In this document: piece after piece, positions 8,041 through 55,800 of the stretch | How positions within the stretch are numbered: position 1 is the first letter of the stretch | Layout of the letters: every line of letters begins with the position of its first letter | DNA from: Octopus vulgaris | Taxonomy: Eukaryota | Direction of reading: 5' to 3' | Assembly (NCBI GenBank): GCA_951406725.2 | Contig: OX597824.1 | Coordinates: forward strand, 57,722,001 to 57,786,000 | Length of the DNA stretch: 64,000 bases | Program-made: the position numbers and the translations under genes | Notes under the pieces: generated by a model | Database searches by the model: none | What the model saw: the letters and a program-made list of their open reading frames with translations, nothing else | Told to the model about the DNA's origin: nothing

Positions 8041-9210
8041 TTTATTCCGTGTTTTAGTATATTTAACCGTGAACACTAATGTTTTGAATTTGTTTACCTG
8101 ACGGTTCGTTTACTAAAGATTAGTAAGAATATCTGCAGTGTACTTTGTTAATATAATGCCACTTACTCCGTTACCAATTCGTCAGCAATTATTAAGCTTC
8201 GAAAGAAGGATAATTTAAGTATTGGGTCTATTGTAAAGATTGTTAACAAGTCAAAAAGTGTTATTCTCGGTATTCTTAAGGTCCACGATGATTGTGGTTC
8301 GTGTGAAGCAAGAAAGTCTACAGGTAGGCCAAGAAAAACGACCAAGAGAGAAGATCGTGCTATGGTAAAGTTGGCTAAAAAGGACAGATTTAAAACTGCT
8401 GCTGTTTCTCGAGAAATGAGCACTGTACTGAAGAAAACTTTATCTCGAAAAACTGTGTCTCGTCGTTTAGTTGAACATGACCTACAAGCAAGAGCACCTG
8501 CAGTGAAGCCACTGATCAGCTCCAAGAATAAAAAGTGTCGTCTTACCTTTGCAACCGAACATGTGTTGTGGTCTCAAGAAAAATGGCAAACGGTGCATTT
8601 CCGTGATGAATCTAAGTTTATGTTATTTGGCTCAGATGGGAAAAGGTACGTTCGTTGAAAAGTAGGTGAAAAATTGTCGCCTAAATGCCTTAAGACTAGT
8701 GTTAAATTCGGTGGAGGAAGTGTCATGGTTTGGGGGATTATATCTGGAGATGGTGTGGGCCCTTTGGTGCGATTACATGAAAAGTTAAATGCAGGAGTTT
8801 ATAAACAACTTGTAAAAGATCATGTCTTGCCTGTGCTAAGAAATTCAACTAAGCGACCACCCATATTCATACAGGACAATGCCCCATGTCACAAGGCTAA
8901 GGTGGTGGTGAACTTCCTCAAGGCTGAAAAGATTATTGTTATGGATTGGCCTGCTGAAAGCCCAGATCTCAGTCCTATTGAAAATGTGTGGAATATTCTA
9001 GGAGAACGTTTGAAATCCAGAAATCCTAAAACAACCGAGCAATTATGGAATAAGATCACCCAGCAAGAAATTGAAGATTTAATTTCCTCATGCAGTCGAT
9101 GTTAAAGTGTGATTGAAGCTAAAGGGCTTCACACTAAATATTAAATAATTCCAGCATTCTCTGTCATTTTGTTATTTTTTCAACCGTTCTGATCATTTTG
9201 GCCGCAACTG
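8041..9210 (+). mobile_element. Tc1-like DNA transposon (DD34E), inactive; left TIR missing
   Basis: Fragments 8362-8658 (FRDESKF) and 8674-9105 (GGGSVMVWG, QDNAPCH, SPDLSPIENVW); 34 residues between D and E; internal stop; right end ...ttttggccgcaactg followed by TA. Confidence 0.93.
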
Positions 9211-10880: not shown

Positions 10881-12331
10881 ATAGTTTTATTTTTATAACG
10901 TACTTTCACTTCACTACCGAGCGCAGCTCTGTGTGCCTTGGGAATGTGTTGTGATTTGTTGTGATACTCTGATGGTTACTGTATTGAAAGTGCTCTGCGT
11001 AGGATGTGTGCAGTGCCTAGTAGTGCAATTTTCTGTATGTTATATGTGTTTGTAAGTCCTGGTGTTTTTGTTATGTATTTGTCTGAATATTTTTTTATCA
11101 TGCCTAATGCACCTACTATGATAGGAATTGTTTCTGCTTTTAGATTCCACATTCTAGTTACCTCTATTTCCAGGTCTTTGTATTTTGAAAGTTTCTCCAT
11201 TTCTTTTAGAGACACGTTGTCATCTGCTGGTATTGATACATCAATTAGAAAGCATTTTTTTCTTCATGATCTCTGACAACTATATCTGGTCTGTTGGCCT
11301 TAATTTCTCTATCTGTATGTATCGGCATATCCCAGACTATGGTTGCTTTCTCGTTTTCTGTGACCTTTTCTGGTGTGTGCCTATACCATCTTTTTTCTGT
11401 TGTTATTCCATAATGTTGGCATAGCTTGCAGTGTATGTAGGTCCCAACTCTGTCGTGTCTGTGAATATATTCCTTCTTAGCCAGGACTGGGCAGCCAGAG
11501 ATAATATGATTTATTGTTTCTTGTCCATCTCTACATATTCTGCAGTTACTTGTTATATTTCTTTTCATTACATGTTTTTGGTAATTTATGGTGGGGAGGC
11601 TTTGGTCTTGTGCTGCAATTAAAAATCTCTCTGTCTCTGCTTTGAGTCCTGAGCTTCTCAACCATTGCTGGGATTTTTCTTTGTCCATTTCTTTTGCATT
11701 TAGTTTAGTCCAGTACTTGCCATGAAGTGATTTTTGTTGCCATCGTTTTATCATGGTCCGTTGCTGTTCTAGTTTTAGTTTTGATTTCATTTGCTTTATA
11801 GCTTTTGTTATGTCTTCTTCTTCTTCTTCTTCTTCTTCTTCTTCTTCTTCTTCTTCTTCTTCTTCTTCTTCTTCTTCTTCTTCTTCTTCTTCTTCTTCTT
11901 CTTCTTCTTCTTCTTCTTCTTCTTCTTCTTCTTCTTCTTCTTCTTCTTCTTCTTCTTCTTCTTCTTCATATTTGTTAGGTGGTATGATTTCTTGTTTGTA
12001 TTTGTCAGCTTCCTTAAATACTGAGAACAATTTTTTCTTTTGCTCGTGTTTTGCCGCCATTTGTATCAGTTTTCCTTGCTTCTGAAGTAGGTATTTTTGC
12101 AGTTCTATGGTGGTTATTTTATAGTAGTTTTCCAGCTTTATAAGGCCTCTACTACCATCTATACGTTGTATATATAGCCTTTCTATGTAAGATTTTGGGT
12201 GATGCATCCTAGATCCTGTCATTATTTTTCTTGCTTTCCTATCCATTTTGCTTAGTTCATTTAGCGTCCAGTTAAGGATATTGTAGCTGTAACTTATAAC
12301 TGGGACGGCTAAAGTGTTAATACCTATTATC

Positions 12332-12332
<1 letters not shown>
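10880..12332 (-). mobile_element. R4/Dong-like non-LTR retrotransposon (restriction-like endonuclease type), 5'-truncated
   Basis: ORF 12246-11245 has HHPK, AAQDQSL, CCHC knuckle CRICRDGQETINHIISGC, RHD and NRPDIVV; after a frameshift it continues to LIDVSIPADD...KLSKYKDLEIE (stop 10976). Both ends lie in (TAA)n. Confidence 0.92.
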
Positions 12333-12404
<72 letters not shown>

Positions 12405-12459
12405 CATTATTATCATCATCATCAAATGGGCATATGGCGTAGTGATTAAAAGCGCGACC

Positions 12460-12740
12460 TATTTCCCTTGGAAGCTTAAAAACAATTTACGAAGGAGGGA
12501 ATAGGTTATTTCCATTGGAAGTTTAAAAATAAATACCCCGCCGTTCAACCACGCCCAAATGTTATTCCTCCGGTCGTTTACCCGGACATTTTTCGAAATC
12601 AATTTACACTTAAAACCTCCCCAAAAGCATTAGCAATGTGCGTGTGAAGTTTAAGAAAAATTGGTCGAGCCGTTTTGGCGCAAAATGAGGACATACCGAT
12701 ACACACACATACAGATATTTTCCGTTTTAATATGCAAGAT
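12460..12740 (-). mobile_element. Non-autonomous Helitron-like element, 5' portion
   Basis: Minus strand starts a|TC...tattaaaacgg...ctgtatgtgtgt...aacggctcgaccaattttt...aaactt, resembling the 5' part of 14445-14826; no CTAG end seen. Confidence 0.5.
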
Positions 12741-18843: not shown

Positions 18844-19779
18844 CACACATGCATACACACAAACACACACATATACGCGTAATGGTGTTATTGGAATCTA
18901 ATCATAGAACTATTCGATCATAGCTGACCTGGGGCTAAACATCAGGAATATATCTGATTTATAACCAAATAAAACTAAATATTTTAAATATAATAATGAG
19001 CAAGGGAGGTATTCAGCTCCTGTTGAACTTAATCTTCAAGCTTGGTTAATTTTGCTCTCCCCTACTATGCCAATGGCCAGAAGTAGTGTATAAGTTACCA
19101 ACGTGATTTTACCTTCCTCATTATTTCAACTTAAATAATACTGCACGAGAATTTTTTTCTTTTTCTTTTTTTTTTTGTCAATAAGTGTTAATTCCTATTT
19201 ATTTCTATCTAGAAATCAAAAGGAATGACTCCTATTTCCTTCAAACTTAGCTTTTCCGGTTTGGACATACATATTTTGGAAACTGACCTATTTTCCAGAA
19301 CATTTCATATAGATTCAACAGTTGAGATTTGCTCAAGCAGAAATATCGTTCTAGCAAATATTTGGCTCAATATCACAGATTTGCTTGTTATAGTAGCTTG
19401 ACCTTAACCACTTGAGCATATCTCTTAGTGGTTGACAATATGTGCTTTACTGATCATGGGCATTTGGGGAACATCATAGCCATGTGTTGAAAAGGTTTGA
19501 ATAAATGTAATAAAAGCAAAATTTGAAGGAAATATTAGCTATTTTTCATACTTTCTAAGGGTAAGCAAATAGGAAATTACAGTTGCCACTCAAGGACAAA
19601 AATTGCGTTACACAATGTAATCTACCCTAATTACTCTAGTGTTTCCTCCATTTCCGCATGCATTATCCGCTAAATTTCCTTTCATCGTTTTACATAATGC
19701 AGTTCTATATTTGAGAGATAAGGAATTATGTACATTATTTACAATTTGACGGATATTTGTCCTCATCTTGTTTGTTGAT

Positions 19780-19825
19780 AACACAACGTTTCGGTTGACA
19801 TACGCTCCAGCCTTCTTCAGATGTC
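19780..19825 (-). ncRNA. Minimal type I hammerhead ribozyme in the PLE terminal repeat
   Basis: gacat-CTGAAGA-a-ggctg...caacc-GAAA-cg-TT-gtgtt; the mirror copy at 20391-20436 (+) has a mutated core CTGAAAA. Confidence 0.72.
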
Positions 19826-20001
19826 CTGGGAAATTTTTGAACTTGGGTTCTCATTCCTAAGGTATTTTTCGATGTTATTATTATTATTATTATTATTCAG
19901 GTCACTGCCTGGTATCGAACTCGGAATCTTTGGGTTAGTAGCCCGCGCTCTTAACCAATACGCCATATGCTCGAGGGCAGCTATGGAGTGAATTTTAGGG
20001 C

Positions 20002-20204
20002 TTATAAATCTAATATTTTTCTACCCTTCCTTAATACCGGTTCCCATATGCTACTCATATCTGCACTAGGTCTGTTTAGGAGGTTATTATGTTGTAGCAT
20101 ATGTGCTACTTCTTTTAGTTTTCGTGTTTTTCACTGGTGTTCTCTGTCGGTTATTTTAACTTCATCCCTTCGAGGGAGGTGGTTTCCATACATGATTAGC
20201 TATA
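20002..20204 (-). pseudogene. Penelope-type GIY-YIG endonuclease C-terminal remnant
   Basis: Hand translation SIANHVW/(frameshift)GNHLPRRDEVKITDREHQ*KTRKLKEVAHMLQHNNLLNRPSADMSSIWEPVLRKGRKILDL*, matching the PLE pattern S-x-A-x-H...V-K-I-x-D-x-E...R-x-x-K-E...LNR...S-x-I-W. Not in the ORF track. Confidence 0.8.
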
Positions 20205-20232
20205 CTCTAAAATTCATTCCATAATTGCCTAC

Positions 20233-20305
20233 GGGCATATGGCGTAGTGGTTAAGAGCGCGGGCTACTAACTCCGAGATTCCGAATTCAATTCCAGGCAG
20301 TGACC
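20233..20305 (+). promoter_or_regulatory. tRNA-derived module with Pol III A and B boxes (mirror copy about 19898-19972, minus)
   Basis: A box TGGCGTAGTGG, D-loop GGTTAAG, anticodon-like arm ggg-CTACTAA-ccc, B box GAGTTCGATACC in the minus copy. The acceptor stem does not close, so it is not a functional tRNA. Confidence 0.75.
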
Positions 20306-22040
20306 TGAATACTATTAATAATAATAATAATAATGATAATAACATCGACAATTCCTCAGAAATGAGAACCCAGATTCGAAATTTCCCCAGTATATCTGAA
20401 AAATGCTGAAGAGTATATCAGCCGAAACGTTGTGTTAACATCAAACAAGATGAGGACAAATATCCGTCAAATGTAAATAATGTATCGTTTTGCATGTCTG
20501 GGATTGATCTTATCTTTAACTACAGTTTTGCCTATATAAGCTTTAACGTTTTATCCCAAGATAAATCACCAATTTATGTTGAGATTAGAACCGCAGATCT
20601 TGACAATTACATAAGAATTGTCCATGTGTCATATTAATTTTGAAGAAAGCTTTTTATTCCTAATACTGAACCCAAACAACTATTCGATGAGATAGTAAAA
20701 TTGATATTGGTTTTCGAACCTGTGTACTGTCAGATTGGAAATCTCAAATACATTTGAGATTTCGTATTCCCAGAATATTCCCACTAACTTAACATTATTT
20801 ATTTATCCTAGAGTTACTAATTTATTTATTCATTTGTTTTCCCCTGATCCCCTCGATGGTTTACAGCTTGACAAAAGAGCGATGCTCTGTAGGTTTCGAA
20901 CCTGTTTGCTGTCAGGTTAAAAGCTATATAAGTCGTTGTGTTTCAATGTCTGATACAATAAATATATGAGCAAAAGCTCAGCCGAGTTATTAAGTTTGTT
21001 ATTTAATTTGATACTGATCCCATTCGTAGAATATATTCTTTCACTCTTTCTTTCTGTCGCTCACACGCACACACACAAACACAAACACACACACAGAACA
21101 ACCAGCCAGAGATTCAGAACATGTTTACAGCTATTATCACGTTCGAGATATTTACCCGGGCGCTGGGTCGGCGGCCGGCCATCATCGTCAATGACATTAA
21201 TATAATTGCTTCTTGCAAAAGACTGAAATCTGAAACTTTTCAAAGGTGGTGGGGAATGGTGGTGAAAGGGGAAGGAGAGAATAGTAACATGTGATGGTTT
21301 TTACTTCATCCTGGGGCAGGAGCTAAGGGAAATAACTCCAATCCGGTATGAAAAAACCGAGTTACGATTGCAATTGCTCTGGAACCTTGAAATTATGGCG
21401 GAGGTCGATTTCAATGTGATTGATTTTCACCATTGTCTGTACATGGTCTCGGCTTTAAGGAGATTGTGTGATGTTTATTCATTTCTCGATGGTGTGCGTG
21501 ATGGACAAATAGCTGAAAATACGAAAGGAAACTGAAATACGATCTCACTTCATCTGGTGGTCCACCTCTAGAGCATGGCGCTCGCCACGAAACACTTATA
21601 TCAGAGCTAATGCCTCTTTTCTGTTGTAACTTAAAGCAGAGATCTTGACCTAATTCATTGATACTTTAGCTGAAATAAATAAAAAAAAAACGATAATAAT
21701 AATGATAAAAATAATAATAACGATAATAATAGAAGAGAAATAACTAGGGAGAAAGTTACAAATAACCCAAGTTAGATCCTGCTCCTTGAAACCGTGAACA
21801 AGGAAAGTTTTCTCCGACGGTGACACATCTCAATCATTAGATTCTTACATAGCACCACAATTTCCAGATTAAAATAGACTTGGTCATCTGTACAGGACGG
21901 TCTGTCGTCAGAAAATCACGCTTCAAGAAATCTGATATAGCTTTACAAAGAACAACAATTTCACTTGGTAAAAAACGTTTGGAAAGAAATCACGACCAAC
22001 ACTTTTACTTTGCCAGTCCGATACAGAAGGTTATAAGTAA

Positions 22041-55097: not shown

Positions 55098-55800
55098 CGT
55101 CTGCTGCTGGAGAGGACCGATCAGGTAAAGGACCTGGGTATCTTGGTGGATTCCTCCTTTTCACCTTCGGCCCAGTGCGTCCATGCTCCCAACAAAGCAC
55201 GCGGAATTCTGTTCTTGATTCGACGGTCATTCGGAATGCTCACAGCAGCCATATTCCTACCACTCTATGTCACGCTGGTGAGACCCATATTGGAGTACGG
55301 GATTCAAGACTCTTCTCCTTATCTCCTCAAAGACATACAGCATCTCGAAAGAGTCCAGAAGCTGGATACCCGCATGATTCATGGTCTCAAAAATTTGTCC
55401 TATGAAGAAAGGCTGAAGACGCTCGACCTTTATTCTCTAGAAAAACGCCGCCGCCGTGGTGATCTCATTCTCGCCCACAACATCATAAGCGGAAAGCGTA
55501 ACCTCTCGAAAGAGCTGTTCTTCACTCCTGCTCCAGAGCGTCGGCTGCGGGGTCATTCCGAAAAGCTCTACCTGCGACGATTTCATCTCAATCGAAGGAG
55601 AGAAGCTTTCTCCGACCGGGTTGCGGATCCGTGGAACAAGCTGCCAGACGAGATGGTGAAGATGCCGACGACCGCTTTGTTCAAAGCCTCCCTTGACCTT
55701 AAGTGTCCTGAACTCTTTACATGAACACCACCCTGTACTTAACTCCATGTCCCCCTACATGGCCTTGCTATTTACTTTTGAGCCAAATTAACTAACTAAC
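55098..55800 (+). mobile_element. CR1-like LINE 3' fragment (RT C-terminal/thumb region), 5'-truncated in (TA)n
   Basis: [57 protein letters not shown]; stop at 55724; (taac)n tail. Confidence 0.93.

Follow-up and report, generated by a model that had tools for sequence, protein, structure and literature searches.

Retrotransposons that encode proteins are assumed to depend on Pol II, and to our knowledge PLE transcription is known from one fly element. Poseidon/Penelope PLEs, e.g., Anolis PAc, schistosome Cercyon, and D. virilis Penelope, possess a single ORF made up of a reverse transcriptase (RT) plus a C-terminal GIY-YIG domain. They share a partial-tandem pLTR, a minimal hammerhead over the ORF start, two tail ends, and inverted truncated copies. 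In PAc, the uncleaved RNA is the template, 172 nt are needed in that template, and ribozyme mutants leave insertion unaffected (Frangieh 2024, PMC11167929). The promoter of D. virilis Penelope, the only tested PLE promoter found, is described in PMC2377424 as LINE-like, TATA-less, internal, and located in the pLTR.

Parts of the architecture described below are known separately: hammerheads in PLEs, tRNA-plus-hammerhead repeats in schistosomes, and tRNA sequences in the LTRs of TRIMs. Schistosoma SMalpha and the metazoan non-LTR retrozymes combine, within one short repeat, a tRNA sequence with a type I hammerhead; PMC4918200 and PMC8490949 describe these repeats as non-coding, tandem, and processed to circles. 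Retrozymes have been proposed to be non-autonomous PLE derivatives (bioRxiv 10.64898/2026.07.22.740005). The TRIMp3 elements Helenus (tRNA in the LTR), Cassandra, and Ajax (both 5S in the LTR) have a small-RNA Pol III promoter in a terminal repeat, possibly by SINE insertion. According to PMC10886601, they are non-autonomous LTR elements with a PBS and PPT, and their autonomous partners are argued to require Pol II. tRNA-derived SINEs, such as the octopus OR1/OR2 CORE-SINEs and OK, have an A/B-box head, a 3' part in common with an autonomous element, and TSDs.

The locus studied here lies on contig OX597824.1 of Octopus vulgaris, in an analysed stretch of 64,000 nt (the window). An abundant PLE of the Poseidon/Penelope clade has left a dead, 5'-truncated copy here, 8-9% diverged from the family consensus (Table 1). 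An initial annotation had listed a GIY-YIG end, a tRNA module, (AAT)n, a hammerhead, an inverted arm, and a TSD, all of which are present where it placed them. Its 12-bp TSD with one mismatch is confirmed, and 12 bp is the family mode. It had also ended the element at the hammerhead; instead, 84 nt of PLE tail, the start of the ORF, continue beyond. Family 3' ends project to 19731 (short) and 19700 (long), and the left arm uses the long one.

Table 1. Features of the octopus PLE insertion, in window coordinates.
Feature	Position	Strand	Basis
TSD, left copy, 12 bp	19684..19695	+	sequence; 1 mismatch vs 20484-20495
PLE tail (first ORF codons 3' of the hammerhead)	19696..19779	-	mapped family ends
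Minimal type I hammerhead	19780..19825	-	sequence; family column counts
ATG of the 835-aa family ORF, 5' of the hammerhead, +128 from head start	19852..19854	-	in-script consensus ORF
(AAT)n tract, length variable	19876..19897	-	sequence, family copies
tRNA-like head (A box 19965-19955, B box 19921-19911)	19899..19972	-	A/B-box score, tRNA comparison
Lead separating ORF stop from head	19973..20001	-	5'-end pile-up
Broken GIY-YIG C-terminal 65 codons and stop TAA (20004-20002)	20002..20204	-	alignment
Inverted 5' arm: lead, head, (AAT)n, ATG, dead hammerhead, short tail	20205..20483	+	alignment
Head of inverted arm	20233-20306	+	
ATG of inverted arm	20362-20364	+	
Dead hammerhead of inverted arm	20391-20436	+	
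TSD, right copy	20484..20495	+	sequence

The two arms are 83% identical, and the inverted arm is 8.9% from the consensus. G15>T is present in the left A box, and the B box of the right arm has mutated. The intact hammerhead core that had been noted applies to the left arm, where CUGAAGA/GAAA is preserved with one helix II mismatch and a predicted cut after GUU (19785/19784). The right hammerhead is dead, with CUGAAAA and a broken helix I. Between the arms, positions 20202-20005 (minus strand) encode the GIY-YIG C-terminus in frame, although a single in-frame TGA and a deletion of 8 nt disrupt it. This peptide aligns to PLE GIY-YIG domains, as had been proposed, at 77% to the C-terminus of another copy and 44-59% to seven other PLE proteins. 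In longer copies, that other C-terminus sits after an RT (PF00078).

The family unit is 2,667 nt long and is ordered head, (AAT)n, ATG, hammerhead, 835-aa RT/GIY-YIG ORF, stop, and next head. The single ORF encodes a PLE-type RT, with a PF00078 match in copy L025, and, C-terminally, a GIY-YIG domain. No Pfam match to GIY-YIG was obtained in the octopus family or in P0018, so the domain was assigned by alignment and motif. Over 808 aa, the 835-aa in-script consensus is 37% identical to P0018 (Anolis, 836 aa), which we take to be the PAc relative; identity to P0002-P0010 is 57-75%. A search of viral contigs for the DNA of these nearest relatives gave no match. Using the Anolis protein as query retrieved 30 loci, every one of which belongs to the same octopus family, with no second PLE family among them, and one 42-mer of the family has 1,877 exact matches.

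The tRNA module is a fixed pLTR component of this family, as the initial annotation had it. The head follows the stop in 28 of 29 loci anchored by GIY-YIG only at a score of at least 40 (the 29th scores 34; random 99th percentile, 22), in 13/14 RT-anchored loci, and in 19/19 protein-anchored loci that reach the stop (13/13 of those scored). A one-off SINE insertion as the source of the module is ruled out by this position across copies. A partial-tandem pLTR is present in L253, L256, L285, L276, and L289, and the head lies between ORFs in tandem and full-length copies. Of three distant PLEs from genome contigs, the two with downstream sequence have no head by eye.

The A/B-box score of the head is 12.6 at the locus (P 0.01) and 21.9 for the consensus, above all 100 shuffles. 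Among the seven amino-acid types sampled, the closest tRNA is tRNA-Arg(TCT), with 48-49 identities of about 73 (~65%). ARAGORN found no tRNA in the window and none in the consensus head even when its threshold was relaxed to 80, and Rfam did not call the head a tRNA. A functional tRNA gene at the head is thus excluded, and the head is a promoter-like relic rather than a cloverleaf.

Copies across the genome begin at this head, so their RNA is likely made by Pol III. Among insertions reaching +20, 47/58 stop between -17 and +20, at 0.04-0.09 ends per nt, compared with 0.0023 within the ORF and 0.0014-0.0025 for the adjacent non-repeat bins (21-74, 111-210). The pile-up places the inferred family start site ~7 nt before the head. 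The (AAT)n tract is another frequent 5' junction and is also an insertion target of other elements. The family's most frequent product is a short, SINE-like copy with its 5' end at the head. No copy spanning the head start through the entire ORF was found among the loci examined, where the longest starts at +37 (L276). Flanking repeats of at least 10 bp (mode 12) are observed in 31/90 insertions versus 2.7% of 447 shuffled pairs.

C56 of the B box is retained in 66/77 head-start versus 42/75 ORF-linked copies (P 7e-5), and in 50/59 versus 32/59 at matched divergence. The nine other CpG cytosines have no comparable gap. Position 64 differs as well, and the C56 gap could therefore reflect subfamily structure. 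The 2,667-nt unit has no T4 terminator versus 2.9-4.8 expected (P 0.005-0.03). By comparison, 0/22 control PLE ORFs, a set that includes repeated families, are without T4 (pooled, 165 vs 155 expected), and in 23/29 host tRNA genes a T4 or a longer T run occurs within 20 nt. T4 is also depleted in two controls without a detected A/B box, L341 (3 vs 6.9) and L345 (2 vs 6.9), and its absence is modest support taken alone. The three genome-wide signs, i.e., the 5'-end pile-up, C56 retention, and T4 absence, favour Pol III.

One of 46 controls has the same layout of A/B module, AAT, and hammerhead. This is L323, an unrelated intact metagenome PLE with its own module. L323 has two T4, both in its ORF, versus 7.0 expected. 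The RT tree leaves it unplaced (weak support), and independent tRNA capture in L323 is argued from the unlike heads rather than from the tree.

The hammerhead sits within the first codons of the ORF, 3' of the ATG, and matches the min-HHR layout in PMC4209133 section 5. A similar ribozyme-coded peptide is found at the N-terminus of the relative P0008. Rfam did not detect the hammerhead at locus or family level; core and helices were assessed by hand and by column counts in 311 copies. Copies have two 3' ends, +250 (54/90) and +281 (36/90), which are 123 and 154 nt into the ORF. These agree with the optional 30-40-nt tail of PLEs that arises from two RT start sites. None of 100 copy ends is within 4 nt of the predicted cut; the ends lie 53 or 84 nt past it, and ribozyme-trimmed RNA as the template was rejected on this basis. 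Ends beyond the cut fit PAc, with its uncleaved RNA template (PMC11167929).

Unlike other Poseidon/Penelope PLEs, the octopus family opens its pLTR with a tRNA-like A/B-box head followed by (AAT)n, contains no T4 in its unit, and has copies whose 5' ends gather at the head. The tested promoter of D. virilis Penelope is LINE-like and TATA-less. Unlike in SMalpha and the retrozymes, the head is in the pLTR of a coding element and copies run past the cut site. Sampled loci are dispersed or inverted, without tandem head-ribozyme arrays, and none of 100 copies ends at the cut; this class, with its tandem hammerhead-bearing monomers cut at both ends, was rejected. The Helenus class, defined by non-autonomous LTR elements with two direct LTRs, a PBS, a PPT, and a 4-5-bp TSD, was also rejected: the octopus element is a coding PLE with ~12-bp TSDs, and the head is on the autonomous unit itself. 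The short copies resemble tRNA-derived SINEs as described, with an A/B-box head, a discrete 5' end at the head, and TSDs. Their partner is a PLE, not a LINE, and carries the head too. The architecture had been considered undescribed. That holds for an autonomous PLE with a tRNA-like head, of which no example was found in the papers searched, but not for tRNA plus hammerhead (SMalpha) or tRNA in an LTR (Helenus), both in non-autonomous elements.

The locus is best read as a dead truncated PLE insertion whose pLTR head probably serves as an internal promoter for Pol III and determines the 5' ends of the family's template RNAs. Pol III would start ~7 nt before the head and, without T4, could continue past the ribozyme and into the ORF. 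On uncleaved RNA, reverse transcription would be primed by the PLE protein within the ORF start, in the way demonstrated for Anolis PAc. With priming at the first junction, the outcome would be short SINE-like copies of the "pLTR plus tail" type, which are probably dead on arrival; with priming at the downstream junction, it would be ORF-bearing copies like the octopus locus. cDNA fold-back would produce the inverted arm. The hammerhead is more likely an mRNA off-switch than a template trimmer because cleavage would remove the start codon. From the sequence, the chance that the full-length RNA is also made by Pol III is somewhat short of even. Uncapped Pol III RNA is hard to translate, which counts against the Pol III reading. 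The complete proposal is more tentative still: an autonomous coding PLE whose full 2.7-kb RNA Pol III would transcribe starting at a captured tRNA promoter, with Pol III terminators purged throughout the ORF, SINE-like by-products, and PLE capture of a tRNA promoter at least twice (the octopus family and L323).

The head may alternatively be a passive remnant, left by an ancient insertion of a SINE or tRNA, with an ordinary Pol II internal promoter whose start coincides with the head edge by chance. Two host SINE heads are as close to it (45-48 identities) as tRNA-Arg, the tRNA fold is lost, and the Penelope promoter (PMC2377424) offers a precedent. This is unlikely, as it leaves unexplained the B-box bias in head-start copies, the absence of T4, a start where pre-tRNAs start, and the same layout in L323. 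Could the pile-up be mechanical, with cDNA fold-back or template jumps at the head edge regardless of the RNA start? The 5' edge of the head is a small palindrome that could promote fold-back there, the lead-head edge folds as a hairpin, and the inverted arm, present in 57/90 sampled insertions, has many junctions on the palindrome. Nevertheless, non-inverted copies end at the head edge too (6/11, P 3e-5), and a hairpin predicts neither the B-box bias nor the lack of T4, making this very unlikely.

The short copies could also be a true self-propagating SINE with a borrowed PLE 3' end, sharing its head with a Pol II-driven autonomous element. Only 1/29 head-anchored copies has the ORF in cis, and short copies are slightly less diverged than ORF-linked ones (0.068 vs 0.080) with frequency shifts at 3/248 positions. 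Against this distinctly improbable reading, the majority base is identical at 247/248 positions, and short copies stop before the 172 nt that PAc requires (PMC11167929). L271 and L272 start at the head and extend 0.6 and 1.2 kb into the unit, and the ORF lacks T4 as well. The initial annotation had suggested that a self-cleaved Pol III transcript is itself a mobilised SINE, a primer, or a regulatory RNA. Short head-start copies and the signs of Pol III uphold part of this, the consensus core is intact and kept in 105/311 sampled copies, and tRNA-plus-hammerhead repeats exist in schistosomes (PMC4918200, PMC8490949). Against the trimming stand the copy ends, the unaffected insertion of PAc ribozyme mutants with uncleaved RNA as substrate (PMC11167929), and the lack of retrozyme-like arrays among the sampled loci. 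No evidence of a primer or regulatory role was found, and this explanation is extremely unlikely.

A tRNA promoter within the terminal repeat of a PLE family would open a direct path by which an autonomous element yields SINE-like repeats. The octopus family also connects PLEs with the unexplained schistosome repeats that combine tRNA and hammerhead. Many of its short copies are likely filed as unclassified SINEs though they are PLE terminal repeats. If Pol III does make the full-length RNA, the family would stand as a living intermediate that joins autonomous elements to SINEs, and tRNA-plus-hammerhead repeats such as SMalpha might have arisen in this way.

The tRNA-like head, which carries A and B boxes, belongs to the pLTR of this octopus Penelope-like element (PLE) family and is a real, family-wide feature. 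The genome assembly searched comprises 2.8 Gb in 227 contigs. A query limited to the GIY-YIG region found the head after the stop (score of at least 40) in 28 of 29 other loci, and the 29th scored 34, the random 99th percentile being 22. From 2,328 candidates, the sample takes the first 30 entries in the list of the 40 top scorers; two of these duplicate earlier loci. With an RT query, the head was present in 13 of 14 loci reaching the stop; in the remaining one the head is deleted after four bases. Of 30 loci obtained with a protein query, 19 extend as far as the stop and all of these run on into the pLTR; the 13 caught by an anchor pattern all score as heads. Tandem and full-length copies share the order stop, head, (AAT)n, ribozyme, ORF. 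The module thus holds the pLTR position that the initial annotation gave it, and a one-off SINE insertion at the locus is ruled out.

At the locus itself, every part listed in that annotation is present, including the inverted arm and the 12-bp flanking repeat (see table). The peptide at 20002-20204 aligns to the GIY-YIG domains of seven other PLE proteins at 44-59% identity and shares 77% identity with the corresponding stretch of another copy; its direct alignment to P0018, an 836-aa Anolis protein taken as a PAc relative, is weak (25%, E 0.011). This C-terminus carries a single in-frame stop codon as well as a deletion of 8 nt. The arms are 83% identical, and their divergence from the family consensus is 8.2% and 8.9%; the ribozyme core is broken in the right arm. 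Neither the head nor the ribozyme was called by ARAGORN or Rfam. The 12-bp repeat agrees with the family pattern, in which repeats of at least 10 bp (mode 12) flank 31 of 90 insertions versus 2.7% of 447 shuffled pairs. The right junction also occurs in three contigs from other runs, with three organism codes and fewer than 31 bases inside the element; one contig from other runs bridges the left junction. Because ORF sequence lies upstream of its head, this copy derives from a long template.

Features of the locus, of the surrounding window and of a second PLE
Feature	Position	Strand	Basis
PLE GIY-YIG C-terminus	20202-20005	minus	reading frame
Stop TAA of GIY-YIG frame	20004-20002	minus	sequence
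Lead, 29 nt	between stop and head	minus	sequence
tRNA-like head	19972-19899	minus	sequence
(AAT)n tract	between head and hammerhead	minus	sequence
Hammerhead	19825-19780	minus	sequence
84 further bases	past hammerhead	minus	sequence
Non-LTR element C-terminus, R4/Dong-like by eye	11245-12486	minus	Pfam zf-RVT below cut-off
Tc1/mariner transposase fragment	8152-8658	plus	PF01498
Open frame, CR1/Jockey-type LINE C-terminus by eye	55200-55724	plus	no Pfam match
L323 tandem PLE: tRNA-like A/B module, short AAT, hammerhead at ORF start	metagenome contig JGI1357J11328_10009043, 2754-3030		

One tail 42-mer matches the genome exactly at 1,877 places, which at ~7% divergence roughly suggests tens of thousands of family arms. 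RT is present in longer copies. The consensus, computed from the 110 longest fragments, has an open ORF of 835 codons that is 37% identical to P0018 over 808 residues, and the 30 loci obtained with the Anolis protein are all members of this family. In an RT tree of 47 rows, from which two short ones were dropped, the family groups with PLE proteins P0002-P0010 in a supported clade. With numbering from the first base of the head, the ATG lies at +128, 5' of the ribozyme, and 70 nt of ORF precede the cut site; the relative P0008 begins with a similar ribozyme-coded peptide. A 9-nt unit of the tail (19731-19745) is often tandemly duplicated with the frame preserved, consistent with a coding tail. 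The best match of the head is tRNA-Arg(TCT), with 48-49 identities among seven amino-acid types sampled. Two other host SINE heads are nearly as close (45 and 48), so the head may have been captured through a SINE.

Three indirect tests, on start sites, box integrity and terminators, address whether the head works as a Pol III promoter. Start sites were scored in 90 of the first 100 exact tail matches listed, all on one contig (C1), each by its farther-reaching arm; the ten left out include duplicates and paired arms. Among insertions reaching +20, 47 of 58 have 5' ends between -17 and +20; 39 of 53 lie between -10 and +10. Per base, ends occur at a rate of 0.04-0.09 at the head edge; the ORF has 0.0023, and the adjacent bins outside repeats (21-74, 111-210) have 0.0014-0.0025. 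Just 8 of 90 insertions extend beyond 100 nt upstream of the head. When the 33 insertions without inversion are taken alone, 6 of 11 likewise stop at the head edge (P = 3e-5), and 10 of 15 joints among those listed in contigs from other runs fall at -8 to +4. A head-only query found the ORF in cis in 1 of 29 loci and the ribozyme tail in 25.

Box integrity was compared after removal of the sets picked with head-containing queries. Among head-start copies, 66 of 77 retain B-box C56 and 58 of 77 have the full set of six B-box invariants; the ORF-linked figures are 42 of 75 (P = 7e-5) and 28 of 70. The A box (54/69 versus 50/70) and nine other CpG cytosines hardly differ. Such a bias would follow if a template needed a functional B box to begin at the head; it could also stem from subfamily structure.

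The 2,667-nt consensus unit has no sense-strand run of four T (T4), with 2.9-4.8 expected under three nulls (P = 0.026, codon shuffle; 0.005, third-position resampling; 0.009, base shuffle), and has 30 runs of at least four A. Each base adjoining any of the 13 TTT is other than T in at least 90% of copies. T5 is absent from seven long real copies, which contain 0-4 T4 each. Controls were 79 metagenome PLE loci, 22 with an open frame of at least 400 codons; all 22 ORFs contain T4 (165 observed versus 155 expected, pooled), and depletion is seen in three, of which two have no detected head. Five metagenome PLEs (L341, L344, L345, L355, and L361, the last without downstream sequence) have ORFs with no T5, few T4, and no A/B box detected; they are either a counter-example or users of another Pol III promoter type. 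In host tRNA genes, T4 or longer follows within 20 nt in 23 of 29, and exactly T4 comes first in nine.

The consensus hammerhead fits the minimal PLE hammerhead described in PMC4209133 (section 5), and the core is kept in 105 of 311 copies. The initial annotation envisaged a Pol III transcript trimmed by self-cleavage and mobilised as a SINE. None of 100 copy ends lies within 4 nt of the predicted cut; ends cluster at 123 and 154 nt into the ORF. For Anolis PAc, PMC11167929 reports that reverse transcription begins 111-118 nt within the ORF, that the first 172 nt of the ORF are required in the template, and that uncleaved RNA is the substrate used. The short copies are therefore most plausibly pLTR-plus-tail by-products, probably immobile thereafter, rather than SINEs trimmed by the ribozyme.

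The element's anatomy, its copy ends and TSDs, the box bias and the missing T4 are shown by the sequences. In the proposed mechanism, Pol III would initiate near -7 and read through, RT would be primed at the first or the downstream junction, and fold-back would make the inverted arms seen in 57 of 90 insertions. Pol III use is likely for head-start templates. Two copies begin at the head and extend to +624 and +1191; therefore, some long templates share the head start. No copy running from head to stop was found among those examined, and Pol III use for full-length RNA is a tentative proposal, put at slightly under an even chance. Such RNA would be uncapped, and the PLE protein could come from Pol II read-through of tandem copies. 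Many ORF-start copies (L275, L282, L283, L284, L286-L288, L290) are chimeras in which a partial ORF is followed directly by another partial pLTR, several beginning at -10 to -1, the pattern predicted if RT switches templates on reaching the 5' end of the RNA.

Elsewhere in the window, the R4/Dong-like C-terminus (also 12329-12456) lies against an (ATT)n tract and against 29 nt of the family's tRNA-like head (12428-12456). In L099, L101, L109, L238, and other loci, another abundant (AAT)n-ended repeat is often joined to the (AAT)n tract of this family, having either inserted into it or been linked through microhomology at the 5' junction. PLE contigs within three bacterial MAGs (L430, L431, L432) are probably host eukaryote contamination.

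No autonomous PLE with a tRNA head was found in the literature searched, which left out most subscription papers and Repbase; a prior database note is possible. Related works describe a full tRNA within schistosome hammerhead repeats (PMC4918200), the SMalpha hammerhead (PMC8490949), Helenus and TRIMp3 elements (PMC10886601), and the Penelope internal promoter (PMC2377424); further related works are PMC8557442, PMC4758252, PMC4824008, and PMC7229834. In the available portion of an octopus repeat study, 893 of 900 recently active SINE families are unclassified and neither hammerhead nor ribozyme is mentioned (PMC13282606). The term 'tRNA' is absent from the main text of bioRxiv 10.64898/2026.07.22.740005.

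A strong A/B pair occurs in one of 46 control loci with downstream sequence, the metagenome locus L323, which scores 20.1, compared with 21.9 for the octopus family and 10.6 for the next-best control. L323 is an intact, perfectly tandem 2,791-bp PLE, and its protein is 38% identical to that of the octopus family; the RT tree does not resolve its position. Its order is stop, tRNA-like module, short AAT, ATG, hammerhead, and each unit has two T4 versus 7.0 expected. The head does not align with the octopus head and may resemble an intron-bearing tRNA-Tyr. L323 is a young second example of a tRNA-like module in a PLE.
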